Assembly: GCA_030693425.1 (NCBI GenBank)
Contig: JAUYAM010000002.1
Coordinates: 81,151 to 145,150 of the forward strand
Direction: 5' to 3'
DNA from: a bacterium
GTDB lineage: Bacteria > Patescibacteriota > Minisyncoccia > Minisyncoccales > GWA2-46-15
Length of the DNA stretch: 64,000 nt
The notes beneath the pieces are model-generated. The model was not told where the DNA came from and made no database searches. It worked only from the letters and a program-made list of their open reading frames with translations. Position 1 is the stretch's first letter. Every line of letters starts with the position of its first letter. Positions 13,084 to 53,485 of this stretch are shown here, one piece after another. Position numbers and translations under genes: made by a program.

Positions 13084-13127
13084 AAGATTAAAGTAATAAG
13101 TGTTCAGGAAGACTAATACGATTCTAA

Positions 13128-14132: not shown

Positions 14133-14140
14133 AGCATTAA

Positions 14141-15169: not shown

Positions 15170-15191
15170 GGTATTAATTTAAAATAAAATT

Positions 15192-16688
15192 TCATTTCTT
15201 TACCCACCTTTGTTTAATTCCCAGTTTAAAATATTTTGGATCTTCAGCCGGCCAAAACTGCAAGCGCGGCAAGGCGCGTTTGCCGAGGAATTTATGGAGC
15301 TCGCGATATTCAGAATTCTTGAGTTGCAACTGTTCAACAATGACGCTAAGAGTCGCCTGCTTGATAGCCCGAGGCACGATGTCATTGCGGGATTTACGCA
15401 TTTCCAAATGAATCAGGAGATATTGATTTTGCTTGCTGTTAAACCGCGTTTCTAAGGTAAATTTCCCTGTTAAATAGGCGCTTAATGGCTTTTTAAGCAA
15501 CGCTTCCCGTATTGGCTCGGGATAAACCTGCAGGCCGTAGAGATTGGTAGAAAAGTCGGCTCGTTCGTAGACATAAACAAAAGGAAGTTCGTGCCAAAAT
15601 TTTTCTATCCCCGCCTTTTTTGCCTCCTTTTTCAAGTCTACTCCTAATTCGCTTAACTTCTTTGTAAGTTCCCGGAAAGAATAAACCCCGCCGTGATCTC
15701 CTAAAGCGTATCTTATGAGCGGCATCGTGTTGTTGCCGCTTACCAAGAGATCATCACCTTCGGCGTCAAACGAAATAAAAGAGGGTATGTATTGGCCTAA
15801 AGTCGGGGTCTTTTGAATTTTTTTGAAGATTGCTTCAAACAACTTTTGATTTTTGGCGCAAAGCCGGCGAATCAAAATTGCCAGGGGCGTCTCAAAAGCC
15901 ATGGCTCCGAGGTCGGCGGTGCCGTAAATATTCATCGTATCAATGAAAGAATTTCTCATATTAACCGCTCTGGAGACATATTCCCGGAAATCCTCGGTAA
16001 AAACTTCTGCTGCAAAAAGCAAGCGGACGCGGAATTTCCGCCAATCAATGCCGCGGGACGGCGCTTCGTCAATAATGTCTTTGATGAGCGGCGGATAACC
16101 GACTAAAATAATATTTTTGTATGATCTTCCAAGGTCCTTCAGCGACTTAAAGATTTCCTCTTTGTTAATGCCCGGGGTGATTAAAGAAACATTATAGCCC
16201 CTCTCCTGAAGCAAGTGGAATGCCTGATAAGTAATCAGGCCGCCGATCCAAACACCCATGCCGAAACAGACAATCACCAGTACTGGTTCTTCTTTTTCGT
16301 ACTGGCCCTGGAGATAAAATAATTCGTGGATAACCGAAGTTTGTAAATCTAAGTCGAAAGATCGATGAAAATAAAAAGGGGTACCGGTGGCTCCGGAAGT
16401 AGAGGTAAAAACAAGCGGTTTATCAATACGCCCGTCAATGGTCAATTCAGATAAAGGATATCTGCGCAGATAATTTTTCTTATCAATCGCCGGCAATAAC
16501 CGAAGATCAGCAACGGTTTTAATATTTTCTGGCTTAACTTTATTATTCCGTAAAAAATCCTGATAAGCAGGAACTTGTCCACTAAGCAAACGAAAGAGAT
16601 TTAAAACACTCTCGCCTCTAATTTTTTCCCAAAACAAACTCTCCCGCGTCTTAATTTGTTGAATAATCCGACTGGCTTTTGTCTTCAT
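15192..16688 (-). CDS. PaaK/CapK/F390-synthetase-like adenylate-forming enzyme
   Basis: 498 aa. TSTSGATGTPFYF (AMP-binding P-loop equivalent of SSGTTGKP) preceded by LPAIDKKNYLRRYP, typical of phenylacetate-CoA ligase-like proteins. Confidence 0.65.
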   Translation of the reverse strand: MKTKASRIIQQIKTRESLFWEKIRGESVLNLFRLLSGQVPAYQDFLRNNKVKPENIKTVADLRLLPAIDKKNYLRRYPLSELTIDGRIDKPLVFTSTSGATGTPFYFHRSFDLDLQTSVIHELFYLQGQYEKEEPVLVIVCFGMGVWIGGLITYQAFHLLQERGYNVSLITPGINKEEIFKSLKDLGRSYKNIILVGYPPLIKDIIDEAPSRGIDWRKFRVRLLFAAEVFTEDFREYVSRAVNMRNSFIDTMNIYGTADLGAMAFETPLAILIRRLCAKNQKLFEAIFKKIQKTPTLGQYIPSFISFDAEGDDLLVSGNNTMPLIRYALGDHGGVYSFRELTKKLSELGVDLKKEAKKAGIEKFWHELPFVYVYERADFSTNLYGLQVYPEPIREALLKKPLSAYLTGKFTLETRFNSKQNQYLLIHLEMRKSRNDIVPRAIKQATLSVIVEQLQLKNSEYRELHKFLGKRALPRLQFWPAEDPKYFKLGIKQRWVKK

Positions 16689-16712
16689 TGTCTGCTAAAA
16701 TTATACCATAAT

Positions 16713-18083
16713 ATGGTGGCAACAACAAAACAATTTAATATATTGGCCACAATAAGGCGGGAATTAACAGGACAGTTGTTAGCAAGAGTGGATAAAGGGG
16801 CAAATCCTTTAAGAGCTAATGCTTTGATTTGGAGTGAGTATGCAGATAGGTGTAATAAAGAAGGCTTGCCAGTTATTGGCGCGAATTTAAGTTTAGGCAA
16901 TATTGATGCGAGCAGCTTTGATCGTGAGCCGGGACATTGGCATTTGTCTCAAGCGTTGGGAATTCACCCTGATGGTGAAATATATAGGCAAATTAGTCTG
17001 ACTAAAGAAAAGTTAAATAGAGAGTATTATTTTTCAGGTAGATCGCTGGCGAAATATGGCGATTTTACCGGTATAGAAGAAGCGAGACTGGCTTTTTCAA
17101 AATATTTAGCCCAGTGGGGCGGAGTGATGATCAGTAAAGAAGAAACGTTTTTTTCTAGTGGCGGAACTTCAGATGCGGCTCAAAGAGAAATGGGAGCTTT
17201 GGTTTTATGGTTAGATAAGAAGCAACTAGAGGCTAACTTTTTAACCACTGTCCCTGGATACACGCCGGTAATTAATATGGCTAGAAGAGCGGGGATGCGA
17301 GTGATAACTTTAGAATGTGGCGAGACGGATAGTTATTTTTTACAGGCGGACCAGGCGCGTCAGATAGTACAAGATCAAAACATAGGAGTATTTTATATCG
17401 TACCGATTAACAATCCGACTGGGACGATGATTCCGGCGGATCAGCTAAGTCGGGTAGTAAAGCAAAGCTATGAAGCAAATACGGCAATAATTTTTTTAGT
17501 GGATTTGGCTTATATTACTACGGTGCCTGAAGAACAGGCGCGCGCGATGTTGGCAGTATTCAATAACAAAGAGATTTTAAGACAGACCGTGTTTTTAACC
17601 TCTTTGTCTAAATCTCACGCAATTCCCGGGCAGCGGCTGGGAGCTTGTCATACAATAGTAGCCGGAATGAACGAGTGTTTGCGCGCGGCCACCGAGGCCG
17701 GCAATCCCTGTCATTCAGCCGCGGCAATGCTGGAAGCGGTAGCGGTGCTGGAAAATGTTAGCAAGGAGGCAGTGCGGCAAACTGCGGCAGTGTATAGGCG
17801 GCGTAGAGAGGTAACAGTTGATGTTTTAAGAGACATTAATCGATTAACTGATAGAGAATTGTTTATTGATTTAGACCAGTTGAAAACTGACGGGGCGTTG
17901 TATGTTTATCCGCGACTAGGAAAAAGTAAAACTAGTTTGGATCTTTTTGTTCAGACTGGAATGTGGGGAATTGGGGGAAGATTTTTTGGGGCGGGTGACA
18001 ATGATCAACGAGTGCGCTTGGCAATAGGAGTTAATTCCAGTTTGGAAATTCAAGGCATTCCTTCACAACTAGATCTGTCTTAA
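16713..18083 (+). CDS. class I/II PLP-dependent aminotransferase
   Basis: INNPTGT and SLSKSHAIPGQRLG (PLP-lysine) motifs. Start trimmed from 16656 to MVATTKQ to remove overlap with the divergent gene. Confidence 0.8.
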   Translation: MVATTKQFNILATIRRELTGQLLARVDKGANPLRANALIWSEYADRCNKEGLPVIGANLSLGNIDASSFDREPGHWHLSQALGIHPDGEIYRQISLTKEKLNREYYFSGRSLAKYGDFTGIEEARLAFSKYLAQWGGVMISKEETFFSSGGTSDAAQREMGALVLWLDKKQLEANFLTTVPGYTPVINMARRAGMRVITLECGETDSYFLQADQARQIVQDQNIGVFYIVPINNPTGTMIPADQLSRVVKQSYEANTAIIFLVDLAYITTVPEEQARAMLAVFNNKEILRQTVFLTSLSKSHAIPGQRLGACHTIVAGMNECLRAATEAGNPCHSAAAMLEAVAVLENVSKEAVRQTAAVYRRRREVTVDVLRDINRLTDRELFIDLDQLKTDGALYVYPRLGKSKTSLDLFVQTGMWGIGGRFFGAGDNDQRVRLAIGVNSSLEIQGIPSQLDLS

Positions 18084-18155
18084 CCAATAGATAATTTTTC
18101 TGCGCCGCGGGCTTCTCGGATATTTTGAAAACCGTCTTTTTTCAAGAATTGCACC
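17983..18155. repeat. 173-bp direct repeat, copy 1 (aminotransferase 3' end plus antisense pyrD 3'-end fragment)
   Basis: Hand alignment to 25129..25301 gives 7 mismatches. This copy supplies the functional aminotransferase 3' end. Confidence 0.9.
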
Positions 18156-18210
18156 TGAAAAAGGCACCTGAAAAAGGTACCTGGTCCCTTTTCCCCTGGT
18201 CCCTTTTCCC
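18152..18210. repeat. junction tandem repeats (2x13 nt and 2x15 nt)
   Basis: cacctgaaaaagg x2, then ctggtcccttttccc x2. The two pairs are imperfect reverse complements of each other. They sit exactly where pyrD homology ends. Confidence 0.85.
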
Positions 18211-18224
18211 CTTGTCAATCCTAA

Positions 18225-18370
18225 TCATATTGGTAGTTCAATATAAAAAGAGGTGCCTTTGTTTTTTCCGGCCGATTCAACTCTGATATCTCCGCCGTGG
18301 AGCTTGACGAATTTCTGGGCGATGTAAAGGCCCAACCCGACTCCTTCGGTCCAGTAGCGGTCGCCGGCGT
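18225..18370 (-). pseudogene. orphan 3' fragment of sensor histidine kinase (fragment A)
   Basis: Encodes ...DRYWTEGVGLGLYIAQKFVKLHGGDIRVESAGKNKGTSFYIELPI (HATPase_c tail only). The upstream part of the 86-aa ORF is unrelated sequence. Confidence 0.85.
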
Positions 18371-18623
18371 TGCTGGTGCTGGTTGGTCTTACCATGACTG
18401 AATTTGAGACACTCGGGTCGAGGTCTAAAAATGTGAATATCTCAGTTTTTATAGTTTTGTTCGGAAAATGAGACAAATGAGACATGAAAAGACGCGTTCC
18501 GCTTTACCGGAACCAGATTATGCAGGGATTGAGAGCGTGGCAAGCGTTGAAAAACGAAACAATTGCTATTCTATAACATCTACCCGTCCTTCTACTCACT
18601 ATATTTAAGGCAATATCCTATCT

Positions 18624-19265
18624 CTAGGACGTTTCAATAGAGTCCATGAAGGTTTCTTCTTTGAACTTAATTAAAGCCTTATCCATTTTTTCCATGCGCT
18701 CTTTCGCAATATTTTTGCTACTTTTAAAAAATAATTCTCCGCTTTTTCTAATTTTGTCCTGTCTGTCAAAACTAAAATAATAATCAATCGCTTCTTTGAT
18801 ATCTTGATTATGTTTTCCAGCGTAAACCGCAAGTCTCCAAAAATTAAGCATTCCTATCTCGTCCAAATTATCCGCATCGTGGACTATTTTACTTTCAGTT
18901 AAATCAAATTTCTTATTTGAAAAATCTACTATCAATTTTATGACATAATCTTTATCGTTTTCATTTTTTATGAAGGGCACAATAAACTCCTCAAAAAGCA
19001 CAATGTTATTCTTATCGTGTTCGTCTAAAAAAAGTCTTTTTTCTAAAGCCAGTTTTTTATTTTTTCCAATATCGTGAAATAGAGACAAAATAATAGTACA
19101 ACCTATGCTTACTTTTTCTTGTAATACCTCAGATTTAATTATTCTTTCAGATAATTTTAATACCCTTAAAGGATGGTAATAGCGATAGTTTTTACCATCT
19201 TTTTCATCCTCAGAGTTATAATTGATTTCCTTAAAAAAGTTTAGTACCTGTTCTTTATTTTCCAT
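18624..19265 (-). CDS. HD-domain phosphohydrolase
   Basis: H...HD...D pattern: YHPLRV, LFHDIGK, HDADNLDEIG. AT-rich. Confidence 0.7.
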   Translation of the reverse strand: MENKEQVLNFFKEINYNSEDEKDGKNYRYYHPLRVLKLSERIIKSEVLQEKVSIGCTIILSLFHDIGKNKKLALEKRLFLDEHDKNNIVLFEEFIVPFIKNENDKDYVIKLIVDFSNKKFDLTESKIVHDADNLDEIGMLNFWRLAVYAGKHNQDIKEAIDYYFSFDRQDKIRKSGELFFKSSKNIAKERMEKMDKALIKFKEETFMDSIETS

Positions 19266-19308
19266 GTTTTTATGTTTAAAATAGGTGGCTAAAAGGATGG
19301 GAGAGGCT

Positions 19309-19902
19309 TTATTCCTCTCCCATCTTTTCTAGGACGACTCTCATAATTTCACTATGGATTTCAAGAGGTTTCTTTTCGCCATCCAGAATCACCCAGCCCT
19401 CGGCACAAGCCAGCGTTTCGTAGGCTTCGGCCATACGGGCATGGTATTCTAGATCCTTACCGTCAAAGAAATCTCTTCCACGAGCTTCAGTGCGTAATCC
19501 TGCCCTTTCTGGAGAAATCTTCAGAAGGAAAGTCAGATCTGGCTTTTTACCCTCAAAGGCAATCTTGTTTAATCTTCTTCTCAGGCCCTCATCCTGAGAC
19601 AAAAGACCAAATTGAGAGTGGTATGCCAAGTATGACTCATCCCACCGGTCTGCAAGGACGATTTGCCCAGCTCCCAGGGCCTCCGTGGCTTTTACGAACT
19701 GCTGGCGATGCAAAGCCTGAAAAGCCAGTGTGATAGCGACATCGTCCCAGTACAAGAAGAAATGAGATAGACCCTCCTTCTCTGCCTCATCATATGCCTT
19801 AGAGATAAATATTCTAAGTCCTTTTCTCTCCAAGACTTCTCGTAAAAGATAGATCTGCGTACCCTTTCCGCAACCATCAATTCCAGTTATACAGATTAAC
19901 AT
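19309..19902 (-). CDS. thymidylate kinase-like P-loop kinase
   Basis: GIDGCGKGT P-loop, ADRWDESYLAYH (DR motif region) and a PDLTFLLKISPERAGLR lid-like region. Clearly GC-richer than its neighbours and has a GGAGG SD 6 nt upstream. Confidence 0.65.
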   Translation of the reverse strand: MLICITGIDGCGKGTQIYLLREVLERKGLRIFISKAYDEAEKEGLSHFFLYWDDVAITLAFQALHRQQFVKATEALGAGQIVLADRWDESYLAYHSQFGLLSQDEGLRRRLNKIAFEGKKPDLTFLLKISPERAGLRTEARGRDFFDGKDLEYHARMAEAYETLACAEGWVILDGEKKPLEIHSEIMRVVLEKMGEE

Positions 19903-19943
19903 CGGAAGCCTCCTTCCTTCTCTCGAGCCTATGTTCTAGACAA

Positions 19944-20864
19944 TTAATGATCTATATAACAATAACACAAACCTGTTCTCAAAGCAACTCTTGGGCGCCA
20001 TTTGGTCAATTCATTAATCTTTTTTATATCTGCTCTAATAATAGAAGAATCTAATATTCTTTGTCTTAGTTTTACAGATTTTAGTTCAAACCTTTTTCCC
20101 GAGATATTATTTAAAATTCCAAATACCTGCTCTACCGACCATGCCTTGCCGGTTCCTACATTGAAAATCTGATTTTTACAATTAGTCTTAGTAAGGCTAA
20201 TTACGATGGCTCTTACAACATCCTCCACCCAAATATAATCCCTTCTACTTTTGAGATTACCTAGTTTTACCTCTTTATCTGCTTTCATTTGTTTGATTAT
20301 CTCGGGAATCAAGTGCGATGTTGTATCGTTTGGGCCGTACACATTAAATAGCCTCAAGGCCGTATAATCAATTCCGAATATGGGACTTAAAGTTCCTATT
20401 ATTTTCTCCCCTAATATTTTTGAAGCTCCATATATATCTAAAGATCCAACCTTATCAGTTTCTTTATGGGGCTTATTGCTGGGATAATAAACAGACGCTG
20501 AGGAAGAAAATATAAGTCTCTTTATGCCGTATTTTTTCATTAAAACAAGGATATTAAGGGTTCCGATTACATTTGTTTCAATCGTTTCTTTTTTATGGGC
20601 TTGACAATAAGGCATATAATGCTTTGCTGCTAAATGAATAATTGTGTCTATCTTCTCTTTTTTGAATACGTCCTCCAGTAGATTGCTCTTATATATATCT
20701 ACTTTATAAAATTTTACTTCGTTATTGATAAACGGTTTTCTTTCAGAAGACAGGTCATCAATTACAATTACCTTATACCCTAATTTTATAAGACTATTAA
20801 CCAAAAAGCTTCCTATAAATCCGCATCCTCCCGTCACAAGAATATTACTCTGTTTTCTTTTCAT
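19944..20864 (-). CDS. NAD-dependent nucleotide-sugar epimerase/dehydratase (SDR)
   Basis: VTGGCGFIGS Rossmann motif and catalytic YGASK. Confidence 0.8.
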   Translation of the reverse strand: MKRKQSNILVTGGCGFIGSFLVNSLIKLGYKVIVIDDLSSERKPFINNEVKFYKVDIYKSNLLEDVFKKEKIDTIIHLAAKHYMPYCQAHKKETIETNVIGTLNILVLMKKYGIKRLIFSSSASVYYPSNKPHKETDKVGSLDIYGASKILGEKIIGTLSPIFGIDYTALRLFNVYGPNDTTSHLIPEIIKQMKADKEVKLGNLKSRRDYIWVEDVVRAIVISLTKTNCKNQIFNVGTGKAWSVEQVFGILNNISGKRFELKSVKLRQRILDSSIIRADIKKINELTKWRPRVALRTGLCYCYIDH

Positions 20865-21420
20865 ATATAAGTTTTTCTATTAAGTTTCTGATTATTTTTT
20901 CTTCTACAAATGCACTATCTTTAAAAACATTTAAACTTTTAGTGTTGTCTTTACCAAATAGCATTTCGCAATAAAGTTTTAAATTTCGATTATAATTTCT
21001 GACAAGTTTATCATTAATCAGAATAAATTCTTTTAAATCCTTATTATCAAGAGATTTAGTTCCTATAAGGTAATCTTTATAGTTTATGTTAAAAATAATA
21101 CATAGGTCAAAGTTTTTATACGCCAAAAATCTCTCGTCTGCAATTAGTTTTCGTACGAGCGCATCTTTACTATCTCTACTTTTTATAAAAGATAGAGTAG
21201 AAGCAACAGACCTTTCTAAAACAACATCTGATTCCACTTCCATAGCCTTTTCTAAATTTTCTAAGTGCTTGTCATAATACCATCTATCTAGATCGGTTTT
21301 TTCTAATTTATGCTTTTTATGATCTGGCTCTCTTATAAATACAAAATCGTGCTTTTTTTCCAGAAATTCGCAAGCCAAGGTTTTTCCCAAAGCCCATAGG
21401 CCTTCAATTACGATTTTCAT
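20845..21420 (-). CDS. P-loop nucleoside/nucleotide kinase-like protein (deoxynucleoside kinase-like)
   Basis: Walker A GLWALGKT, REPD, and an ERS motif (VLERSVAS) as in dNK-family kinases. Weak assignment. Confidence 0.45.
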   Translation of the reverse strand: MKIVIEGLWALGKTLACEFLEKKHDFVFIREPDHKKHKLEKTDLDRWYYDKHLENLEKAMEVESDVVLERSVASTLSFIKSRDSKDALVRKLIADERFLAYKNFDLCIIFNINYKDYLIGTKSLDNKDLKEFILINDKLVRNYNRNLKLYCEMLFGKDNTKSLNVFKDSAFVEEKIIRNLIEKLIYEKKTE

Positions 21421-22636
21421 AATTTAAAGTTATATAATCTGGAACAGTAGACGAAAATTTTACTCTTTTTTCTTCCAGCCACATAGGTAGGGGCGATAGT
21501 CGTTGAAAAAAAATTTTATTCTTTTTCTCCTTATCCTTAACCCCAAGAACGAAAGAGCTTCTTTTTTTCTTAAATTTTGTTTTCTTGTAAAGCTTAATTA
21601 CTTTCTCGGCTATAAAATCAAATGAAAACTTTTTGCAAACTATTTCCCGCGCTTTTTTACTTTGTTCGGTTGCTACTTTCAGGTCATCCAATAGTTTCTC
21701 AACTAATTTCGGATATTTAGTGATATCATTTTCAATAATTGCAATATTGCGTGGATAACCTGAAATTCCCATTTCAGTAGATACTATAGGAAGCCCTGAG
21801 GCCGCGTAATTTAAAAGTTTTACTTTCATTCCAGAACCTTCAAAGACCGGTGCTATTGCAATAGAAGATTCTTTCAAAAAGGGCCTAATATCATCCACCC
21901 CTCCAGTAAAAACAACCTTGTCGGAAGAGAATTTCCTGCGGAAAGAATCTTCTACCATGCCAATACACAACAGTCTGGCATTGATATGGGGCACTATCAT
22001 TTTAATTGCTATTTCTGCAGCATTTCTGTTTGGTTCATAGAACATATTCCCCAGAAAAATAATTTGTCTTTTAGGTAAATTAGGAGAATTATACTTAAAA
22101 TAATCAGTATCTATACCGTTCGGTATTAAATTTATTTTATCCTTGAGTATGCCCATGTGAATGAATTCTTTTTTATCTTTAGGCGTCATACATATTACCT
22201 CATGAGAAAGATAGCCGGCAGAATATTGTATAAATTCTGAAATATCAATATCCTGTCTATCGCACCCGAGAGTCTTCTTTATAATTGCGTCACAATCATG
22301 CATCTCTGTAACAAGCGGAATTCTTAATTCATTAGAATAATATGCCCCGTACGAAAGCACCGATGAAGAGTTATTCACTTGGATAATGTCTGGCTTTTCT
22401 TTGCTAATAACGTTTTTTACGAAGTCTATCTTTTTATAAAAAACTTCTGGTGAAAATATATGAAATACAAAAGGTTCCTTTTTTAGGTCGTTATGGGAAA
22501 CCCATCCTCTCTCGCAAAGAAACATTACAACTCTAACCCCCTTTTCTTCAAGTTTTTTAGATAAATAGTACAGACGAAAGGCTACACCGCTTTTGGGAGG
22601 TATTTCAATGCCATCAAAGATTATACCTATTTTCAT
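21404..22636 (-). CDS. GT-B glycosyltransferase (family 4/1-like)
   Basis: 410 aa with two Rossmann-like halves. C-terminal EGSGMKVKLLNYAASGLPIVST matches the GT4 E-x7-E region. Confidence 0.75.
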   Translation of the reverse strand: MKIGIIFDGIEIPPKSGVAFRLYYLSKKLEEKGVRVVMFLCERGWVSHNDLKKEPFVFHIFSPEVFYKKIDFVKNVISKEKPDIIQVNNSSSVLSYGAYYSNELRIPLVTEMHDCDAIIKKTLGCDRQDIDISEFIQYSAGYLSHEVICMTPKDKKEFIHMGILKDKINLIPNGIDTDYFKYNSPNLPKRQIIFLGNMFYEPNRNAAEIAIKMIVPHINARLLCIGMVEDSFRRKFSSDKVVFTGGVDDIRPFLKESSIAIAPVFEGSGMKVKLLNYAASGLPIVSTEMGISGYPRNIAIIENDITKYPKLVEKLLDDLKVATEQSKKAREIVCKKFSFDFIAEKVIKLYKKTKFKKKRSSFVLGVKDKEKKNKIFFQRLSPLPMWLEEKRVKFSSTVPDYITLNYENRN

Positions 22637-22872
22637 GATAGAAGATGTTCTTTCTTAAAATATTTATAATGATTCCTTTCCTTTTTGCTATGATTTGATC
22701 TACCAGCATTTTCATCTCCAAAAAAAGAAGCAAGCAGCCTTGCCAACCCTTTATTAAAGCAATACACTCTCCTGTTTTTGTAATTATAAATGTAAATTTT
22801 GTCGTTTATCTCTTTTGCTATTATCATAATTGTCGTCGTTTTTATATTTATGCTATTTCCTTCAGAATCCAT
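22633..22872 (-). CDS. hypothetical small protein (79 aa)
   Basis: ATGA overlap with the glycosyltransferase gene. Faint resemblance of KIYIYNYKNRRVYCFNKGLARLL to PqqD-like peptide-binding domains, which is not enough to call. Confidence 0.3.
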   Translation of the reverse strand: MDSEGNSINIKTTTIMIIAKEINDKIYIYNYKNRRVYCFNKGLARLLASFFGDENAGRSNHSKKERNHYKYFKKEHLLS

Positions 22873-22975
22873 AAGGTTACTTGTAATAATCTTGTTTTTC
22901 CAACATTAAAGCAGTTTTTAGTAGCAAACTCGAGCTTTGCAATTTCTGGCCTCCGACGCCAAAGACCACTTCTAT

Positions 22976-23299
22976 TCATATTACTACCTCTGAAACATTC
23001 TCGGGAGTTAAATCTCCTCCCCTAGTAAAGATATTGGGCTTTATTTTCTCCAGTGTCTTAATTACTGTTCTGTGTTTGTCTATTGATAATACTGCTTCGT
23101 CCACCCACTTAATTGCTTTCACTATTTCAAATTTCTCTTTTCCTATCATAAAAGGCGCGCTTCCCTTTAATTTCACCTGTTCATCATTGTTCACTATCAC
23201 TATCAATTTATCTCCAAGCTTCTTGGCACCTCTTAAATATTTTAAATGTCCTATATGAATTGGATTAAAATATCCGCTGGCAACAACTATTTTCATCAT
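22976..23299 (-). CDS. cytidylyltransferase-fold nucleotidyltransferase, ends at an in-frame TGA (see finding)
   Basis: GYFNPIHIGH (HxGH) nucleotidyltransferase motif. 107 aa is short for the family. The same frame continues for 32 protein-like codons after the TGA. Confidence 0.65.
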   Translation of the reverse strand: MMKIVVASGYFNPIHIGHLKYLRGAKKLGDKLIVIVNNDEQVKLKGSAPFMIGKEKFEIVKAIKWVDEAVLSIDKHRTVIKTLEKIKPNIFTRGGDLTPENVSEVVI

Positions 23300-23362
23300 T
23301 TTGATCTTATGAAAATAACCCTGTAAATCTAAAATTTTTATGATTATCTATAAAGAGTTTAA

Positions 23363-24079
23363 CTAGAAATATCCATCTATTTCTTTGTCTAGTCGTTTAA
23401 AAAAATCTGCCATAAATTTATGCCTATCTATCGCCATTTTTTTACCTTCTTCTGTAAGCATTCTGTCTTTAATTTTACAAAGCTTAACACTAAATTCTCT
23501 ATAGGCAGTATCCTCTTTCGTATATGGCTTGGTTTTTTCCAGATCAATATCTTTATTATGAAGTCTGGCTCCGATTTCCCCAGAAAACAGAAAAGCCCTT
23601 CCTATGCCACAAGCTCCAATGGCATCAAGTTTATCCGCATCAAATAAGATTTGGGCCTCTCTACTCTGCGGGAAATTATTGCTTCTAAATCTGTGCGTTT
23701 TTATACAAGAAATAATTTTTTCTATTTTTTCTTGATCAATGTTATGTTTTTCTAAAAGTTCTTTGGCCAAAATCGCTCCCTTTTTGGCGTGACAAACCTT
23801 TCCATTTGACTTATATTCTTCTTCTCTGCCTATATCGTGTAAAATCGCGGCCATCCCTAGAACCTCTGTATCTACATTTTCCAAGCTACCTATTTTAATA
23901 CAAAGATTATAAACTCTTAAAGTATGGTCCCAGTTGTGGCTTCCTCTAGAATTTATAAAAAACTTCCTTGCTTCTTTTTTGATTCCCGACCAATCAAGAG
24001 TCAATCCATTCTTCTTATAAATTTTTCCTTTTTGCTGCCCTATTTCTTTGGGACTCCCTTTAAACGTTTTTATTTCCAT
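23363..24079 (-). CDS. HD-domain phosphohydrolase
   Basis: WDHTLRV, AAILHDIGR, FDADKLDAIG. Confidence 0.75.
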   Translation of the reverse strand: MEIKTFKGSPKEIGQQKGKIYKKNGLTLDWSGIKKEARKFFINSRGSHNWDHTLRVYNLCIKIGSLENVDTEVLGMAAILHDIGREEEYKSNGKVCHAKKGAILAKELLEKHNIDQEKIEKIISCIKTHRFRSNNFPQSREAQILFDADKLDAIGACGIGRAFLFSGEIGARLHNKDIDLEKTKPYTKEDTAYREFSVKLCKIKDRMLTEEGKKMAIDRHKFMADFFKRLDKEIDGYF

Positions 24080-24356
24080 ACAAATAAATTAGATTTAGTG
24101 TTTAAATTTATCGCAGAGCTACTCGAGTCACAGCTCTCTCGCGATCACTCGGGTCTGCACGATAAGAAATGGTCGTGGCGGGACACTCGGGTTAAGTGCC
24201 CAGGGTAGCCACATTTTTAAGAACATTATAGGTCTTTTTAGGCGATTTTGCCAGGGTTGAATTATTTCAATTGGCTGGTTTATATTAAACCCATCAGGCA
24301 CTGGGTTACGCACATCCCGAGAGTTCGTACACACTTTCACCTAATTTGTTATAACC

Positions 24357-24922
24357 GTGATATTATTATTAATAATAGATAAGTATTTTTTAATTTTAAT
24401 TTTATTTTACCTAATATTCTTAGGAGCCCTTTTTGAAGCCCCTTGGCTTCCTACAATGAAAAAGAACTTCGATAGAATAGCAAAATTAGCGGGTCTGCAA
24501 CCAGGCATGTTGTTTTATGATCTGGGTAGCGGTAGCGGTGAATTGTTATTTTGCTTATCAAAGAAATATGATGTGAATTGTATCGGGATAGAGATTTCAC
24601 CGCTTCTGTACTTGTATTCAAAAATCAAATCTTTATTTTTTAACAAAGTAAAAATTAGATACGGCAATTTTTACAAATACGATTTATCAAAAGCAGATGC
24701 GGTTTATGTTTTTCTATTCCCAAAAGCTTACTATAGATTAAAAACCAAAATTAGCTCGGGACTAAAAAAGGAGCAAGGGTAATATTATCTTACTGGCCCT
24801 TTGAATACTGGGAACCAACCGAAATAAGCGAAAAAGAAAATTCAGTCACCTATTATTTATATATTGTGCAAAAAGAAAAGGAAGGTTATTTTTTGTCAGT
24901 TAAAGCGGGAAGTTCAATATAA
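24357..24922 (+). pseudogene. TM-anchored class I SAM-dependent methyltransferase, frameshifted at an A6 run
   Basis: Track ORF 24357..24782 (GTG start) has motif I, FYDLGSGSGELL. After the A-run at about 24764-24769 the next frame reads KKGARVILSYWPFEYW, the expected continuation. Confidence 0.55.
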
Positions 24923-25137
24923 AAAGAGGTGCCTTTGTTTTTTCCGGCCGATTCAACTCTGATATCTCCGCCGTGGAGCCTGACGAATTTCTGGGCGATG
25001 TAAAGGCCAAGACCGGCTCCTTCGGTCCAGTATTTTCCGTCGGCCTGGCCTCTGGAAAAGCTTCGGAAAAGCTCTTTTAAGTCTTGTTTACTGATGCCCG
25101 CTCCCGTGTCTTTTATTTCTATGACGACTTTTTGGGG
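24886..25137 (-). pseudogene. orphan 3' fragment of sensor histidine kinase (fragment B), fused to antisense aminotransferase sequence
   Basis: Encodes VVIEIKDTGAGISKQDLKELFRSFSRG...GLGLYIAQKFVRLHGGDIRVESAGKNKGTSFYIELP. The N-terminal MPSALVDHCHPP of the 94-aa ORF is antisense to the repeat copy. Confidence 0.85.
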
Positions 25138-25301
25138 CGGGTGACAATGATCAACGAGTGCGCTTGGCAATAGGAGTTAATTCCAGTTTGGAAATTCAAG
25201 GCATTTCTTCACAATTAGATCTGTCTTAACTAATAGATAATTTTTCTGCGCCTCGGGCTTCTCGGATATTTTGAAAGCCGTCTTTTTTCAAAAGTTGCAC
25301 C
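25129..25301. repeat. 173-bp direct repeat, copy 2 (antisense-orphan aminotransferase 3' fragment plus functional pyrD 3' end)
   Basis: Hand alignment to 17983..18155 gives 7 mismatches. Confidence 0.9.
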
Positions 25302-26356
25302 AAACCGCGATTGATTTCGCTGATGAACTGCGGGCCCTCAAAAATCATTCCGGTAATGAGTTGGACCAGCGAAGCGCCCGCTTTAATTTTTGTATAGGCG
25401 TCAATGGCTGAAAAAATGCCGCCGCAGCCAATAATAATATATTTTCCACCGCTTTTCCGATAAATGAAGCGAATTTGAGCGTTGGACAACTCTTCTGTTG
25501 GCTTTCCGCTAATGCCGCCTTTTTCTGGAACTATCTGATCGCCCATTTTTAACGCGCTTCTATTTTTAGTAAGATTGCCGCAGATAAATCCATGAATGCG
25601 GTGGTTCTCGCATACTCGGAGGATAGCGTCAATCTGTTCTTCGCTTAGATCAGGAGACATTTTTAAAAAGATGGGTTTCTTCGTAGAAACGGCGTCAATT
25701 GCTAAAAGAAGACGGTTGAGTCGATCGGGTTCGGTAAAGGGCTCGCCGCCAAAAGCGTTCGGGCAGCTAATGTTGATGGTAAAGTAATGACCAATATCAA
25801 CAAACTGGCGAAACGCTTTTAGATAATCGTTAATTCCGGCTTCGGTTTCAACCGTGGCTAAACTATTAGTCTTGGCAATACTTGTTCCGAGAGGGATTTT
25901 GAAATTTTTTGAGCGTAACCGGCCAGCTATTTTTTCACATCCTTGATTCTTTAATCCGTAATATACTAGGAGAGAGCGCGATTCTTTCAAACGCCATAAC
26001 CGCGGCTTAGGATTGCCTTCGCACGGTTCACCGGTGATGGATCCTACTTCCGCAAATCCAAACCCAACGCAAGGAAGAATGTCAGTGAGCAAGGCGTCTT
26101 TATCAAAGCCAGCAGCCAATCCCACTGGATTAGGAAAATGTATTCCGAGGAGATTTTGTTCCAGCATCGGATGAGTAAAAGAAAATGACAGCGACGTTGC
26201 CTTTCTTGTAATCGCGCGTTGTCCGAGAAACTTGCCTATCCGCGTCATGGCGTTGTGAACTTCTTCCGGATCGAGGCGAAAATAAATAGGTTTTAATATA
26301 TTGGCGTAAAAAAAGTGAAACAATTTGTTTCGCGCCGCTATCGTCAAATTATTCAT
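25226..26356 (-). CDS. pyrD: dihydroorotate dehydrogenase, class 2 (quinone-type)
   Basis: 376 aa. N-terminal extension typical of class 2, plus GLAAGFDKDA and GCGGIFSAIDAY motifs. Confidence 0.85.
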   Translation of the reverse strand: MNNLTIAARNKLFHFFYANILKPIYFRLDPEEVHNAMTRIGKFLGQRAITRKATSLSFSFTHPMLEQNLLGIHFPNPVGLAAGFDKDALLTDILPCVGFGFAEVGSITGEPCEGNPKPRLWRLKESRSLLVYYGLKNQGCEKIAGRLRSKNFKIPLGTSIAKTNSLATVETEAGINDYLKAFRQFVDIGHYFTINISCPNAFGGEPFTEPDRLNRLLLAIDAVSTKKPIFLKMSPDLSEEQIDAILRVCENHRIHGFICGNLTKNRSALKMGDQIVPEKGGISGKPTEELSNAQIRFIYRKSGGKYIIIGCGGIFSAIDAYTKIKAGASLVQLITGMIFEGPQFISEINRGLVQLLKKDGFQNIREARGAEKLSIS

Positions 26357-26432
26357 AGTCCATTTCTTAGTTTTATTTCTAAAGGCGACTGTCGCCTTAT
26401 AGCAAGAAGAAAATCGTCAGTAAAATAATCGT

Positions 26433-27795: not shown

Positions 27796-30039
27796 TCAGC
27801 GGTCTCGACTTGTTTTGCTTAGGATTAGATTCCCTATTTCATTTTTGTCTGCTGCCATCGGCAGATCAATGTAAAAAGAGGTGCCTTTGTTTTTTCCGGC
27901 TGATTCGGCGCGGATATCGCCGCCGTGGAGCTTGACGAATTTCTGGGCGATGTAAAGGCCCAACCCGGCTCCTTCGGTCCAGTAGCGGTCGCCGGCGTGG
28001 CCTCTAGAAAAGCTTTTGAAAAGGTCTTTGAGGTCTTTTTTGCTGATACCCGCCCCGGTGTCTTTTATTTCAATGACGACTTTTTGGGATAGTCCCCGGC
28101 TTTGACTGGCTTCGACGGTAATGTTTCCCTTTTGGGTGTAGAGGATGGCGTTGTCAATGATAATAATAAGCACCTGCCTGATTTTTTCCTTGTCCATAAG
28201 AATTTGGGGCAACGGCTCTTTCTCCTCTTTGTAGGCTAAAACTAGGTTCTTTCCCTTGGCTTCGGTTTTTAGGGCTTCGATGACGCTGGTAATCAGTTCT
28301 TTGAGCGAGCTCTTTTCCAGGTTTAGTTCGATTCGGCCGGCTTCTATTCTGGAAACTGTTAAAATATCTCCGACCAGCTTTATTAACCTCTCGTTTGTCT
28401 GAAAAACTCTTTGGATAGGCTCTTTCATTCTCCCGGGCATGTTTCCGTAGGTTCCTTCAACGGCCATCGACAAATACCCCTTGATAATACTCAAAGGAGT
28501 TCTTAGTTGGTGCGAAGCAATGGAGATAAACTCCGATTTTGCCTCGTCTAGTTTTTTGAGCTCTTCGTAAGCCTCTTTTAATTCTCTGGTTTGTTCATCA
28601 ACCTTGGCTTGGAGGTTTTTTGACAAGTCTTGAACTTGGGAATAAAGCTTGGCGTTTTGCAGGGCAATCGAGGCCTGATGCGACAGGGCCGTGAGCAGGT
28701 CCAAGTCCTCTTTGGAATAGGAATCTCCGGAAATCTTGTTGCCCAGGACGATGATGCCGATAATTTTATCTTCGATTAAAAGCGGCAGGCAGAGGCTGGC
28801 CTCAATCCTTTTCATGTTTTGCTTCAGCTTTTCGAGATCGGTTTTTTCCGTCATTTTGCTGTCTCTAATGACCAAAGACAATTCCTCATAAACCAAGGCT
28901 CTTTTGGTTTTCTCGAGATATGAGGTTAAGAAATCGTCCCTGACCAAAGAGATGCCGTTTTCCTCTCTGAATCCGATATTCTTTTTGATCTGGTAGTCTC
29001 CGGTTTGAGGATCCCTTAAAAGGATGACCGTTCTGTCTAACTTCATGGTTTCTACCAGGGTGCTGGTGATTAAAGAAGCTAACTGATCAAGGTCTAATAC
29101 TCGGGTCAATTTTCTTCCCATGTTGATGATGACCGTTTGATACGAATAGAATGTGTAATAGAAATATTTTGAAGCCAGGTTTTCAAAAAAACGGTAGACC
29201 GGTTGAAATAAAAGGATGCTTAAAAAAATAATTAATGGTCCTAAAACATTGAAAGTTGCTGGTTGCTCTAATTTGTTATTCAGAATGATTGTCAAAGAAG
29301 CCAGACCGATGACGACAAGGAAGGAAAGAAAATAAACCGCGCTTTTGCCGATGACAAAACGGATATCCATTAGTTGATAGACCATGACGGCGTAAGAAAC
29401 AAAACCGACCATGAAAAGAGTTGCCACCTGGCCAAGCCAATTAAAGCGGAAATCACCGATGGTCGGCAGGAATAAATTAAAGATTGATCCCAGAACAATG
29501 GAAAGGCTGGTCCCCAAGAGCATATACCTGACTTGTGATTTTAGGATCCCATGAGACTTTATATATCTTTTAAAAAGATTCCAAAGAGCCCAGGTGAAAT
29601 AGCTGGAAATGTAGACCGTATAAAGGAGATAAGCTGGTCCCCAAAGAATTTCTTTTTCTTGGCCAAGATGAACTTTTACATCTTTGATAATCATTCCTTT
29701 CAAAGCTACCAAGACGACTACAATAATCATTGGCAAGACAATCAAGAGACATTCTCTTTTTGTGATTTTCCATTCTCCGTGGGGGTAGATAAAGGTAAAA
29801 TATAAGAAAGAGATCGGAATAAGGGTGGCCGAAACATAAAGAATCTGGCACCAAATAACAGAAGTTTCTTGCGGCGAGGATCTGTAGAGAATCATCGAGG
29901 CTATCCAGAGGATGACTGCTCCGATAACAGTGCTCCAAATCAAATTTACTTTTCCTCTTTTGCTTTTAAAATAACTGAAAAATGCCAAAGCAAAATTAGC
30001 AATCAGGACAATTACAAGAATAGTATTTTTCCAGTCCAT
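27796..30039 (-). CDS. sensor histidine kinase (7TM N-terminal domain, GAF-like, HisKA, HATPase_c)
   Basis: 747 aa. About 7 TM helices, HisKA SIASHQLRTPL, HATPase GAGLGLYIAQKFVKLHGGDIRAESAGKNKGTSFYIDLP. This is the intact source-like copy of the repeated 3' segment. Confidence 0.9.
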   Translation of the reverse strand: MDWKNTILVIVLIANFALAFFSYFKSKRGKVNLIWSTVIGAVILWIASMILYRSSPQETSVIWCQILYVSATLIPISFLYFTFIYPHGEWKITKRECLLIVLPMIIVVVLVALKGMIIKDVKVHLGQEKEILWGPAYLLYTVYISSYFTWALWNLFKRYIKSHGILKSQVRYMLLGTSLSIVLGSIFNLFLPTIGDFRFNWLGQVATLFMVGFVSYAVMVYQLMDIRFVIGKSAVYFLSFLVVIGLASLTIILNNKLEQPATFNVLGPLIIFLSILLFQPVYRFFENLASKYFYYTFYSYQTVIINMGRKLTRVLDLDQLASLITSTLVETMKLDRTVILLRDPQTGDYQIKKNIGFREENGISLVRDDFLTSYLEKTKRALVYEELSLVIRDSKMTEKTDLEKLKQNMKRIEASLCLPLLIEDKIIGIIVLGNKISGDSYSKEDLDLLTALSHQASIALQNAKLYSQVQDLSKNLQAKVDEQTRELKEAYEELKKLDEAKSEFISIASHQLRTPLSIIKGYLSMAVEGTYGNMPGRMKEPIQRVFQTNERLIKLVGDILTVSRIEAGRIELNLEKSSLKELITSVIEALKTEAKGKNLVLAYKEEKEPLPQILMDKEKIRQVLIIIIDNAILYTQKGNITVEASQSRGLSQKVVIEIKDTGAGISKKDLKDLFKSFSRGHAGDRYWTEGAGLGLYIAQKFVKLHGGDIRAESAGKNKGTSFYIDLPMAADKNEIGNLILSKTSRDR

Positions 30040-31989: not shown

Positions 31990-32067
31990 TGAGGTGTTGT
32001 ACACTGTCAATCCCGCTGAGGCGTTATGCCGGAAGCGGGAAAAATATTCAGAAAAGGAGAAGTACAG

Positions 32068-53365: not shown

Positions 53366-53485
53366 GGCACTTCGTCGCCAAGGCTCCTCAGTGTCTTCAA
53401 TTTTCTGTATATTAAATTGGTCGAAATCCTGAGTGCAGCGAAGGATGTAGACTCTGAAATTTGAGCAGAAGCGAAAATTGAAGAG

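Follow-up and report, generated by a model that had tools for sequence, protein, structure and literature searches.

Well-known members of the GT4 glycosyltransferase family, such as MshA and sucrose-phosphate synthase, glycosylate small phosphorylated acceptors before a phosphatase acts. The glucosylation of hydroxymethylcytosine in T-even phages offers a formal parallel for a locus that combines an NTP pyrophosphohydrolase, a dNMP kinase and a glycosyltransferase. Among nucleotide hydrolases, the YpgQ/YedJ group includes YpgQ, which acts as a (d)NTP pyrophosphohydrolase, and the nucleoside 5'-monophosphatase PenF (PMC8177086, PMC11592144). The island examined in this study (positions 18624-24922 of the window, that is, of the whole 64,000-nt stretch of DNA analysed) carries two HD phosphohydrolases, two kinases, a nucleotidyltransferase, an epimerase and a glycosyltransferase in one gene string. 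A sequence-only reading had described this combination as not a textbook NDP-sugar pathway, and the comparisons below bear it out as a non-textbook set that co-occurs as one set.

Enzymes encoded in the island

The minus-strand order is a 238-aa HD phosphohydrolase (HD238), an HxGH nucleotidyltransferase, a 79-aa protein, a GT4 glycosyltransferase, a dNK-family kinase, a GalE-type SDR, a Tmk-family kinase and a 213-aa HD phosphohydrolase (HD213), and a methyltransferase gene lies on the plus strand. Searches against Pfam and NCBIfam confirmed all nine gene assignments of the sequence-only reading. HD213 (18624..19265, minus strand; Pfam HD, 2e-7) retains an intact H...HD...D motif and matched Lin1889 (3b57, 3e-6) among PDB sequences. 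HD238 (23363..24079, minus strand; PF01966, 9e-16; PRK10119, 3e-26) matched 2pq7 (5e-26), YpgQ (5dqv, 5e-21) and YedJ (3gw7, 2e-20). Both thus fall into the YpgQ/YedJ group of nucleotide hydrolases, a membership that the sequence-only reading had missed together with the host lineage and the flanking duplications.

The Tmk-family kinase (197 aa; 19309..19902, minus strand) matched PF02223 (Thymidylate_kin) at 7e-19 and scored 72 against TIGR00041, for which the cut-off is 83. It falls in a Patescibacteria Tmk subfamily whose DRWD and AYH signatures were derived from 117 sequences, and in which the Gln that canonically contacts the base, as well as an Arg, has given way to invariant His. Given the roles of these residues in Tmk structures, the nucleotide of this subfamily may not be dTMP. 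The other kinase (191 aa; 20845..21420, minus strand) is a P-loop protein of the dNK/Tmk fold that matched dNK at 2.3e-5, under the Pfam cut-off. It carries EP and ERS motifs among its invariant residues and has no Arg-rich lid of dNK enzymes. The best folds for its AlphaFold model (pLDDT 90) were thymidylate kinases and the Mycoplasma mycoides deoxyadenosine kinase, with TM scores up to 0.72; together with the EP and ERS motifs, this modelled fold points to a nucleotide as candidate substrate. The protein is rare, with only 162 relatives in 1.84 billion representatives.

The SDR (306 aa; 19944..20864, minus strand; PF01370, 2.5e-60) had been called an epimerase/dehydratase, and only the epimerase part of that label stood: the best NCBIfam model is galE, the closest solved relative is the Thermotoga maritima UDP-glucose 4-epimerase (4zrm, 2e-46), and the translation contains the GalE-type motifs SSSASVY and YGASK, as in NDP-hexose 4-epimerase-like extended SDRs. 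The GT4 glycosyltransferase (410 aa; 21404..22636, minus strand) matched PF13439 and PF13692, both over the cut-off, and its gene overlaps the small ORF at its start codon and the kinase gene at its stop. The product of that small ORF (79 aa; 22633..22872, minus strand) had no family match in Pfam, NCBIfam, PADLOC or PHROGs; its AlphaFold prediction (pLDDT 60) gave no usable model and the fold search no match. An ORF of 59-60 aa occupies the equivalent position in relatives, one of which (59 aa, locus L017) is a weak match (32% identity, 9e-5).

The nucleotidyltransferase (22877..23299, minus strand; RfaE domain II-like) is a pseudogene. Its 107-aa product matched CTP_transf_like (PF01467) at 4e-17, was closest in NCBIfam to the heptose-1-phosphate adenylyltransferase domain, and scored 76 against TIGR02199 (cut-off 181). 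The reading frame is interrupted by a TGA at 22976-22978, and read-through adds 32 codons that include a GGQKLQSSS motif. The methyltransferase (24357..24922, plus strand), a small class I enzyme with a hydrophobic segment at its N-terminus and weak Pfam/NCBIfam matches to DOT1, CMAS and archaeal lysine methyltransferases, is likewise a pseudogene; a frameshift lies in or close to the A-run 24764-24769, and reading resumes in another frame. Between the divergent genes lies a locally GC-richer promoter/leader spacer (24080..24356), the minus strand of which folds unusually well (z = -4.0; none of 200 shuffles was equally stable); it had no match in Rfam and no homologue in any fetched locus.

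Conserved gene order, fusions and a proposed pathway

The set was found together in other Patescibacteria loci, of which 14 were seen in context (L004-L009 and L011-L018, several being near-duplicate contigs), so that the possibility that these genes do not co-occur elsewhere, raised in the sequence-only reading, falls. On a Shapirobacteria chromosome contig (L016), the genes for the small protein, GT4, dNK-like kinase, GalE-type SDR and Tmk-like kinase follow in the same order (identities to the island: GT4 53%, as also in L017; kinase 32%; SDR 43%; Tmk 51%). This cluster has native GC and sits among housekeeping genes (ftsK, an mreB-like gene and alaS), and its genes overlap; the overlaps in L016 and the window span 4 to 38 nt. 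In L017 and L018, the order HAD, small ORF, GT4 and SDR adjoins a Tmk gene and a kinase::NUDIX fusion. Five other loci (L004, L005, L006, L009 and L011) share the order kinase, Tmk, HD213 and GT2, in which the GT2 is a multi-pass membrane protein of the polymer/lipid synthase type (Glyco_trans_2_3). HD213 orthologues with 44-47% identity adjoin the kinase pair in four of these (L004, L005, L009 and L011), and L011 additionally has an HxGH transferase and an HD238 orthologue (35% identical) after GT2. L016 and L017 lack both the nucleotidyltransferase and HD238, which are therefore accessory and not core. The enzymes are also joined in single proteins, namely P0270 (SDR, GT4 and kinase) and P0344 (GT4 and kinase). 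Kinase relatives of 300-360 aa made up 41 of 148, and all eight sampled combined the kinase with a NUDIX domain; these domains resemble NudB, NudI and NudG, and the HAD protein of L017 resembles pyrimidine 5'-nucleotidases. By these sequence comparisons, the gene set is no chance assortment but an undescribed operon conserved in Patescibacteria.

The locus is best explained, with a probability of about 0.5, as a foreign insertion carrying a conserved one-unit operon that links pyrimidine nucleoside/nucleotide salvage to the making, epimerising and transfer of an NDP-hexose. The insertion, the assignments to families and folds, the conserved gene order, the fusions and the lesions are shown by the comparisons; the substrates, direction of flux and acceptor, which we infer, would be as follows. 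The dNK-type kinase would convert a salvaged nucleoside to a pyrimidine (deoxy)nucleoside monophosphate, the Tmk-type kinase would raise this to the diphosphate, and general enzymes would make the triphosphate. The YpgQ-type HD enzymes, in whose place relatives have NUDIX domains, would convert (d)NTP back to (d)NMP, thereby setting the pool. The nucleotidyltransferase would load a sugar phosphate onto the nucleotide, the SDR would 4-epimerise the NDP-hexose, and GT4 (GT2 in other loci) would transfer the sugar to an acceptor, probably in the envelope. The sequence-only reading had offered two functions, a nucleotide-linked sugar for the envelope and phage hypermodification or defence; on the inferred substrates and acceptor, the former is the more likely.

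Alternative functions

Leloir glycosyltransferases release NDP, and the supply of nucleotides by salvage therefore fails to explain why a nucleoside kinase is fused to GT4. The fusions of the kinase to GT4 and SDR in P0270 and P0344 would be accounted for directly if the product were a nucleoside or nucleotide bearing a sugar. The dNK-type kinase would then phosphorylate a nucleoside, GT4 would use the nucleotide (or the nucleoside) as acceptor in the manner of MshA and sucrose-phosphate synthase, the SDR would supply an epimerised donor, and the Tmk-like kinase with the HD, NUDIX and HAD enzymes would tune the phosphorylation of the conjugate. Such a product would also explain the accompanying phosphatases and pyrophosphatases of three folds, and the invariant His at the base-reading positions of canonical Tmk is compatible with an unusual nucleotide. 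However, the multi-pass membrane GT2 of other loci is more in keeping with envelope glycans than with a soluble metabolite, the set has no conserved tailoring or export genes alongside it, and Patescibacteria are not known to make such a product; we regard this possibility as doubtful.

It is unlikely, and somewhat more so, that the operon merely houses two unrelated housekeeping functions, thymidylate/pyrimidine salvage (nucleoside kinase, Tmk and dUTPase-like pyrophosphatase) and an envelope glycosylation pair of GalE and GT4. Patescibacterial genomes are compact, which makes heterogeneous operons possible. In Patescibacteria, the Tmk-like subfamily comprises over 120 clusters annotated as dTMP kinase, no glycosyltransferase accompanies the Tmk-like genes and NUDIX fusion of L013-L015, and the housekeeping surroundings of the L016 cluster are in keeping with such an arrangement. 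Against this stand the existing fusion proteins, the gene overlaps, and the fact that a glycosyltransferase stays with the kinase pair even when GT4 is exchanged for GT2.

A DNA- or nucleotide-modifying or anti-phage module is improbable. Following T4-like logic, the pyrophosphatase would deplete a canonical dNTP, the kinases would build a modified dNTP and the glycosyltransferase would decorate DNA. The parts list formally resembles that of the T-even system, the His substitutions in the Tmk subfamily could point to a modified base, and in PADLOC the Tmk-like protein weakly matched the candidate PDC-M51B (1e-9) and the methyltransferase matched mad2 (2e-10). However, the PADLOC and PHROGs matches are generic and at family level only, neither the island nor any related locus encodes a hydroxymethylase or other base-modifying enzyme, and the Shapirobacteria cluster is chromosomal. 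In IMG/VR viral contigs, the 191-aa kinase and GT4 had no relative and the Tmk subfamily only generic matches of 24-25%. Neither these searches nor the locus contexts revealed an association with phage or defence, and this half of the sequence-only reading was not upheld.

Insertion into a Falkowbacteria-like host

The host is a Falkowbacteria-like Patescibacterium (candidate phyla radiation), as its dihydroorotate dehydrogenase is 85% identical to a Ca. Falkowbacteria protein and further matches are to other Patescibacteria. A relative (L020/L021) is collinear with the window at 12076-18154 and 25123-26357, and its dihydroorotate dehydrogenase and aminotransferase genes abut directly and convergently, as an empty site. 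Window positions 18156-25122 (6,967 bp) are therefore an insertion, located between the convergent 3' ends of the aminotransferase and the quinone-dependent dihydroorotate dehydrogenase genes. A 179-bp junction sequence occurs once in L020 (6566-6744) and, as empty-site and repeat comparisons showed, twice in the window. The left copy (17977..18155), 95% identical to the right one (25123..25301), contains the aminotransferase 3' end (plus strand) and a 76-nt piece of the dihydroorotate dehydrogenase 3' end (minus strand); the right copy contains the true dihydroorotate dehydrogenase 3' end and an aminotransferase 3' fragment. Next to the left copy lies a filler (18156..18228), absent at the empty site of L020, with two short tandem duplications read from the alignment (GCACCTGAAAAAG and CTGGTCCCTTTTCCC, each twice). 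Inside the insertion, the AT-rich core lies between two host-like 3' fragments of histidine-kinase genes. The left one (18225..18485, minus strand; 46% GC; homology over 18229-18370) is 92% identical to the 3' end of a full-length kinase (27857-27998) and 95% identical to 24908-25032. The right one (24886..25170, minus strand; 47% GC; HATPase_c, 3e-18) is 86% identical to 27860-28088 and joins the right target copy at the microhomology TTTTTGGG. Given the target duplication, the junction microhomology and filler, and the lack of an integrase in the insertion, illegitimate recombination would have placed it.

The island has 34.0% GC against 45.2% for the remaining window. The drop noticed in the sequence-only reading is thus real, whereas its estimate of 20-30% overstates it, because the mean is 34% and only single 100-bp windows reach such values. 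Its AT-rich genes have 28-35% GC (GC3 0.23-0.32) and host genes in the flanks 38-50% (GC3 0.36-0.58). The tmk-like gene is, as had been noted, a GC-rich cassette (46% GC, GC3 0.45) and the only one among the nine island and nine neighbouring host genes checked to have a strong SD (GGAAGGAGG); a terminator-like hairpin lies 3' of its stop codon, and the nearest relative of its product is 86% identical. The island copy is a mosaic of a tmk allele of the host lineage and otherwise foreign genes. The earlier view of a compositionally foreign, mosaic and partly decayed island is supported, and the empty-site comparison adds a true insertion.

It is hardly credible that the assembler joined contigs of different genomes through 125-230-bp repeats, so that the island is not at this site. 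In favour of such a join, the GC of the island is unlike that of the host, and a Logan assembly made from the same run splits the region exactly where the repeats lie, into three contigs (L003 up to 18012, L001 over 18310-24940 and L002 from 25176 onwards). Against it, 9 of 179 positions distinguish the two target copies, and each copy runs on into unique junction sequence (filler and kinase fragment on the left, kinase fragment joined at the microhomology on the right), which must exist in real molecules; moreover, the insert embeds the host-like kinase fragments and tmk allele, and the contig as deposited measures 453 kb. Two pseudogenes mark this copy of the operon as partly decayed, and the organism probably lacks an intact version of the full pathway. 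Both lesions, which the sequence-only reading had taken as signs of decay or mosaicism, are also present in the independent Logan assembly, where L001 is an exact match to window positions 18310-24940.

Composition and gene content of the island

The GC content of the island (18624–24922) was 34.0%, as compared to 45.2% for the remainder of the window. Its AT-rich genes showed GC contents of 28–35% with GC3 values of 0.23–0.32, and the flanking genes showed 38–50% and 0.36–0.58, respectively. The 20–30% GC proposed in the sequence-only reading was found in some 100-bp stretches but, as a mean, was overstated. All the gene assignments of that reading were borne out by Pfam and NCBIfam searches. 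In minus-strand order, the island encodes an HD protein of 238 aa (HD238, 23363–24079), an HxGH nucleotidyltransferase of 107 aa up to a TGA, a 79-aa orphan protein, a GT4 glycosyltransferase of 410 aa, a dNK-like P-loop protein of 191 aa with a weak match (the kinase), an extended SDR of 306 aa, a thymidylate-kinase family protein of 197 aa (Tmk-like), and a second HD protein of 213 aa (HD213, 18624–19265); a methyltransferase gene is divergent. No paralogues of these proteins were found in the rest of the window, and Rfam searches of the island at E ≤ 1 and of the whole window at gathering scores returned a tRNA-Gln at 53485 as the sole match. The spacer upstream of the operon (24085–24350) was locally GC-richer (52% at 24100–24199), and its minus strand folded far better than shuffled sequences (z = −4.0, 0/200; plus strand, z = −2.5). 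This spacer matched no Rfam family and had homologues in none of the fetched loci; it may represent a leader RNA or a relic of other DNA.

The kinase scored 24.7 bits against the Pfam dNK family (PF01712; cut-off, 27), with the match confined to residues 3–52. The structures of dNKs feature a P-loop, a Glu-Pro catalytic-base motif, a Glu-Arg-Ser motif, and an Arg-rich lid. EGLWAxGKT, E31-P32, and E69-R70-S71 were invariant among five aligned family members; the Arg-rich lid was absent, and the matching helix of the five members carried invariant N142-Y143 and N146-L147 and no conserved Arg. The AlphaFold model (pLDDT 90) matched thymidylate kinases and the deoxyadenosine kinase 2jas in Foldseek with a probability of 1.0 (TM 0.60–0.72), and the kinase is thus confidently predicted to adopt a Tmk/dNK-type fold. 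The Tmk-like protein scored 68.6 bits against PF02223 (cut-off, 27) and 72.1 bits against TIGR00041 (cut-off, 83.25). The P-loop GIDGCGKGT, D85-R86-W87 at the DR(Y/H/F) motif, and the lid arginines R137 and R141 were conserved among 117 members of its subfamily, which comprises more than 120 clusters and in which every source name bearing a lineage was Patescibacterial. DRWD and AYH motifs were invariant in this subfamily, and His occupied the thymine-reading positions (H65 in 95% and H95 in 100%) in place of the thymine readers of Tmk structures, the Arg after the stacking Phe and the Gln of the AYQ motif. These replacements suggest that the preferred nucleotide may be one other than dTMP.

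HD213 and HD238 both aligned with solved members of the YpgQ/YedJ group, and the H...HD...D metal ligands were present in both translations. Against NF007515 (YedJ/YpgQ-type; cut-off, 286), HD238 scored 92 bits and HD213 16 bits, and neither reached the PRK10119 cut-off. HD213 is a distant member of the group: its E value was 3e-6 with Lin1889 and no better than 0.09 with YpgQ. Of the group members with known activity, YpgQ hydrolyses (d)NTPs as a Mn-dependent pyrophosphohydrolase, and PenF acts as a nucleoside 5'-monophosphatase (PMC8177086, PMC11592144).

The SDR scored 185 bits against the GalE model TIGR01179 (equivalog cut-off, 262), its best solved relative was a UDP-glucose 4-epimerase (2e-46), and it contained the Rossmann motif GGCGFIG together with SSSASVY and YGASK at the Ser...YxxxK triad. 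The best-scoring models, the nearest solved structure, and these motifs all indicate a GalE-like enzyme; a role as an NDP-sugar dehydratase was rejected on the motifs and closest relatives. Both half-domains of the GT4 protein (GT-B, retaining) passed their cut-offs (PF13439, 62.9 bits vs 28.5; PF13692, 62.7 bits vs 27), and a PDB sequence search found no solved close relative. The nucleotidyltransferase contained a HIGH motif and was closest to the heptose-1-phosphate adenylyltransferase domain, that is, to the sugar-phosphate branch of HxGH enzymes, with a score of 76 bits to TIGR02199 (RfaE domain II/HldC), which did not reach the cut-off of 181.5. The 79-aa protein may be a PqqD-like peptide-binding domain; its single-sequence AlphaFold model was poor (pLDDT 60) and gave no significant fold match.

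Recurrence of the gene set and fusion proteins

The family of the 191-aa kinase is very rare: among 1.84 billion representative proteins, a profile search retrieved 162 relatives with E ≤ 1e-3, of which 60 had E ≤ 1e-10, and scans for the kinase in GTDB species representatives and JGI metagenomes gave a single short contig and two loci, respectively. On a Shapirobacteria chromosome (L016), a 60-aa ORF was followed by genes for GT4 (53% identical), the kinase (32%), the SDR (43%), and the Tmk-like protein (51%). The gene order there matched that of the window, the genes overlapped, the GC content was native, and the neighbours were housekeeping genes. In a further locus (L008), the start of the kinase gene was overlapped by the GT4 C-terminus exactly as in the window. 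In L017/L018, the order HAD, 59-aa ORF, GT4, and SDR adjoined a Tmk-like gene and a kinase::NUDIX fusion gene, and the HAD protein of L017 resembled pyrimidine 5'-nucleotidases. Five loci (L004, L005, L006, L009, and L011) carried the kinase, Tmk-like, and HD213 orthologue (44–47%) genes followed by a membrane GT2 gene, and in L011 these were joined by genes for an orthologue of HD238 (35%) and for a fusion of an HxGH transferase with a P-loop domain.

Among the relatives of the kinase, a 904-aa protein (P0270) was a fusion of SDR, GT4, and kinase, and a 625-aa protein (P0344) was a fusion of GT4 and kinase. Relatives of 300–360 aa made up 41 of 148, and all eight that were scanned consisted of kinase and NUDIX domains, the latter resembling NudB, NudI, and NudG. 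Taken together, the conserved order, gene overlaps, swap of glycosyltransferase family, and fusions argue for a gene set that acts as one functional system. No description of this set was found in the searchable literature. All its enzymes belong to known superfamilies; what seems new is their conserved, partly fused combination in Patescibacteria, an operon of the nucleotide-sugar/glycosylation kind in which dNK/Tmk-type kinases and nucleotide pyrophosphatases accompany a glycosyltransferase and an epimerase of GalE type.

Several of the related loci had further neighbours. In other Patescibacteria (L013, 1199–4491; also L014 and L015), two more genes came after one of the Tmk-like subfamily, namely another, divergent Tmk-like gene (184 aa) and one for a NUDIX-methyltransferase-CYTH fusion (509–571 aa), and a glycosyltransferase was lacking. 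Downstream of the kinase-Tmk-HD-GT2 set in L004 (6102–9157), a TPP-dependent decarboxylase of the phosphonopyruvate/sulfopyruvate type was split into separate genes for its N- and C-terminal halves, accompanied by a methyltransferase and a 364-aa orphan; these neighbours hint at phosphonate or sulfonate decoration. An rve-family integrase fragment (393–1001) lay just upstream of the set on L005/L010, a 6.5-kb contig of 33% GC binned as 'uncultured Gammaproteobacteria', which points either to a doubtful bin assignment or to mobility of the set.

Candidate function and comparison with known systems

From the observed family and fold assignments, linkage, and fusions, we infer substrates and flux as follows. 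The unit would couple pyrimidine nucleoside salvage to NDP-hexose synthesis, 4-epimerisation, and transfer to an acceptor, probably in the envelope, a reading to which we assign a probability of about 0.5. A salvage chain would convert nucleoside to NMP and then to NDP, the pyrophosphohydrolases would set the nucleotide pool, and an NDP-hexose would be made and 4-epimerised before its sugar is passed to the acceptor. Patescibacteria constitute a large part of bacterial diversity and scavenge nucleotides and other building blocks; to our knowledge, next to nothing is known of the way in which their surfaces are made.

The main rival, which we regard as considerably less probable, is that the nucleotide itself is the acceptor. 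The dNK-type kinase, the Tmk with altered base readers, the HD/NUDIX NTP pyrophosphohydrolase, the GalE-type epimerase, and GT4, fused in some relatives, would then form an undescribed Patescibacterial enzyme system yielding a glycosylated (deoxy)nucleoside or nucleotide. This would account better for the kinase-GT4 fusions but fits less well with the membrane GT2 of other loci. Such a product would be a metabolite or cofactor of a new kind or else a precursor of modified nucleic acid in a cellular lineage, and would raise the interest of the set sharply. A conserved, sometimes fused unit would mean either a lineage-specific coupling of nucleotide salvage to glycans or a glycosylated-nucleotide pathway, and both readings are directly testable with four or five small soluble proteins. 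That the genes merely share an operon is somewhat less likely again, being weakened by the fusion proteins. The role in phage-like DNA hypermodification or defence that had been considered earlier is improbable: no base-modifying enzyme (e.g. dNMP hydroxymethylase) is present, PADLOC and PHROGs scans gave only generic, family-level matches, and neither GT4 nor profiles of the kinase and of the Tmk subfamily retrieved a subfamily member from the viral contigs scanned in IMG/VR, leaving the set with neither a phage nor a defence association.

The set can be compared with several known systems. Like the ADP-heptose/LPS core pathway (HldE/HldC, HldD, and heptosyltransferase), the island combines an HxGH nucleotidyltransferase for sugar 1-phosphates with an extended SDR that would epimerise the NDP-sugar and with a glycosyltransferase; its transferase matches RfaE domain II best, and its SDR also matches the heptose 6-epimerase model. 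However, the scores are far under the equivalog cut-offs, the SDR is nearer to GalE, the kinases have dNK/Tmk folds instead of being PfkB or GHMP sugar kinases, GmhA/GmhB are lacking, and the glycosyltransferase is GT4 or GT2, not GT9. Adjacent dNK/Tmk-fold P-loop kinases are shared with the deoxynucleoside salvage of Mollicutes and Lactobacillus, in which dNK-family kinases, partly heterodimeric from tandem genes, occur with thymidylate kinase. The kinase of the island has the EP and ERS motifs, M. mycoides deoxyadenosine kinase is among its best fold matches, and the carriers in both cases are salvage-dependent bacteria with small genomes. It differs from these dNKs in lacking the Arg-rich lid, in its Pfam dNK score below the cut-off, and in its tiny family (162 representatives); moreover, we know of no fusions of classical dNKs to NUDIX, GT4, or SDR domains such as those in the kinase family. 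The glucosylation of hydroxymethylcytosine in T-even phages (dCTPase, dNMP kinase, and alpha/beta-glucosyltransferases) shares the logic of nucleotide pyrophosphatase, nucleotide kinase, and glycosyltransferase, whereas the island lacks a hydroxymethylase, its kinase and glycosyltransferase families differ, and the set is cellular, conserved, and chromosomal. NAD salvage by NadR or NadM-Nudix is analogous in that a P-loop nucleoside kinase, an HxGH nucleotidyltransferase, and NUDIX are fused or adjacent, and AAA_28 and NMNAT models gave weak, sub-threshold matches; in contrast, the second kinase of the island is clearly of the Tmk family, and GT4 and SDR have no counterpart there.

Insertion, probable mosaicism and decay of the locus

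The window is part of a 453-kb contig of a metagenome-assembled genome. Its dihydroorotate dehydrogenase was 85% identical to that of Candidatus Falkowbacteria, and further matches of this enzyme were from other Patescibacteria. The locus of a relative (L020/L021) was collinear with window positions 12076–18154 and 25123–26357, and the dehydrogenase and aminotransferase genes there were directly convergent with no DNA between them. The 179 bp around this junction occurred twice in the window (17977–18155 and 25123–25301), the two copies being 95% identical. This empty site and the doubled 179 bp indicate that 18156–25122 (6,967 bp) is an insertion with a 179-bp target duplication, owing to which both flanking genes stay intact. 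Within the insertion, two host-like histidine-kinase 3'-end fragments (18229–18370 and 24908–25136) lie on either side of the AT-rich core; they are 86–95% identical to one another and to the full-length kinase at 27796–30039. The right junction lay at a microhomology, TTTTTGGG. The left junction (18156–18228) contained two adjoining short tandem duplications, GCACCTGAAAAAG twice and then CTGGTCCCTTTTCCC twice, of which the former opens on the final bases of the target duplication; they look like a slippage or template-switch scar.

No integrase, transposase, or recombinase was found among the island ORFs and no tRNA nearby, the only one in the window being that at 53485. The locus does not fit an integrase-mediated genomic island, and the flanks, with their 179-bp duplication and microhomology and filler junctions, suggest that illegitimate or short-homology recombination made the insertion, perhaps in two steps. 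The Logan contigs from the same sequencing run end exactly at the repeats of both junctions, which leaves some room for a chimeric assembly join, but the divergence of the repeat copies and the unique junction sequences point to a real structure and make such a join very improbable. Near-identical C-terminal coding sequence is found at four places, in the full-length genes of two 7TM-type histidine kinases (11467–13083 and 27796–30039) and in the two 3' fragments (18225–18485 and 24886–25170), and these repeats may drive rearrangement in the host genome.

The nearest relatives of the AT-rich genes showed only 53–62% identity, and the tmk allele had a relative at 86%, the level of host housekeeping genes. 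The tmk-like gene is GC-richer (46%, with host-like GC3) and carries a strong SD, as had been noted from the sequence; it is the only one with such an SD among the 18 island and host genes checked, and a terminator-like hairpin lies 3' of its stop codon. These differences suggest a mosaic island, in which a tmk cassette of the host lineage is combined with a foreign gene cluster. Insertion in itself is ordinary biology, well documented here; with the empty site in a relative, the long target duplication, and the mosaic allele, the locus provides a clean case of gene transfer between Patescibacteria without mobile-element machinery.

The two lesions that had been described were both present. 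A TGA at 22976–22978 cuts the nucleotidyltransferase frame ahead of the C-terminal SSS motif, and the frame runs on for 32 codons with this expected motif; in the methyltransferase gene, coding resumes in a different frame past an A-run at 24764–24769. The Logan assembly, made independently from the same run, reproduced the island exactly, including both lesions. UGA recoding (code 4 or 25) was rejected as an explanation of the TGA, since code 11 gives intact ORFs for all eight other genes of the island. With the nucleotidyltransferase and methyltransferase inactivated, the pathway is probably incomplete in this copy.

Two further features of the window were observed. A non-orthologous replacement is apparent after a 7TM histidine kinase gene, where a cofactor-independent phosphoglycerate mutase of 403 aa is encoded in the window (10259–11470) and a His_Phos_1 protein of 225 aa at the syntenic position of the relative (L020, 13271–13948). 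A sharp GC-rich patch at 32000–33500 (58–66% vs about 45%), seemingly a further compositional anomaly besides the island, contains long ORFs overlapping on both strands, including those for an Ala/Glu-rich protein with a terminal zinc ribbon and a Pro/Ala-rich, membrane-anchored zinc-ribbon protein.
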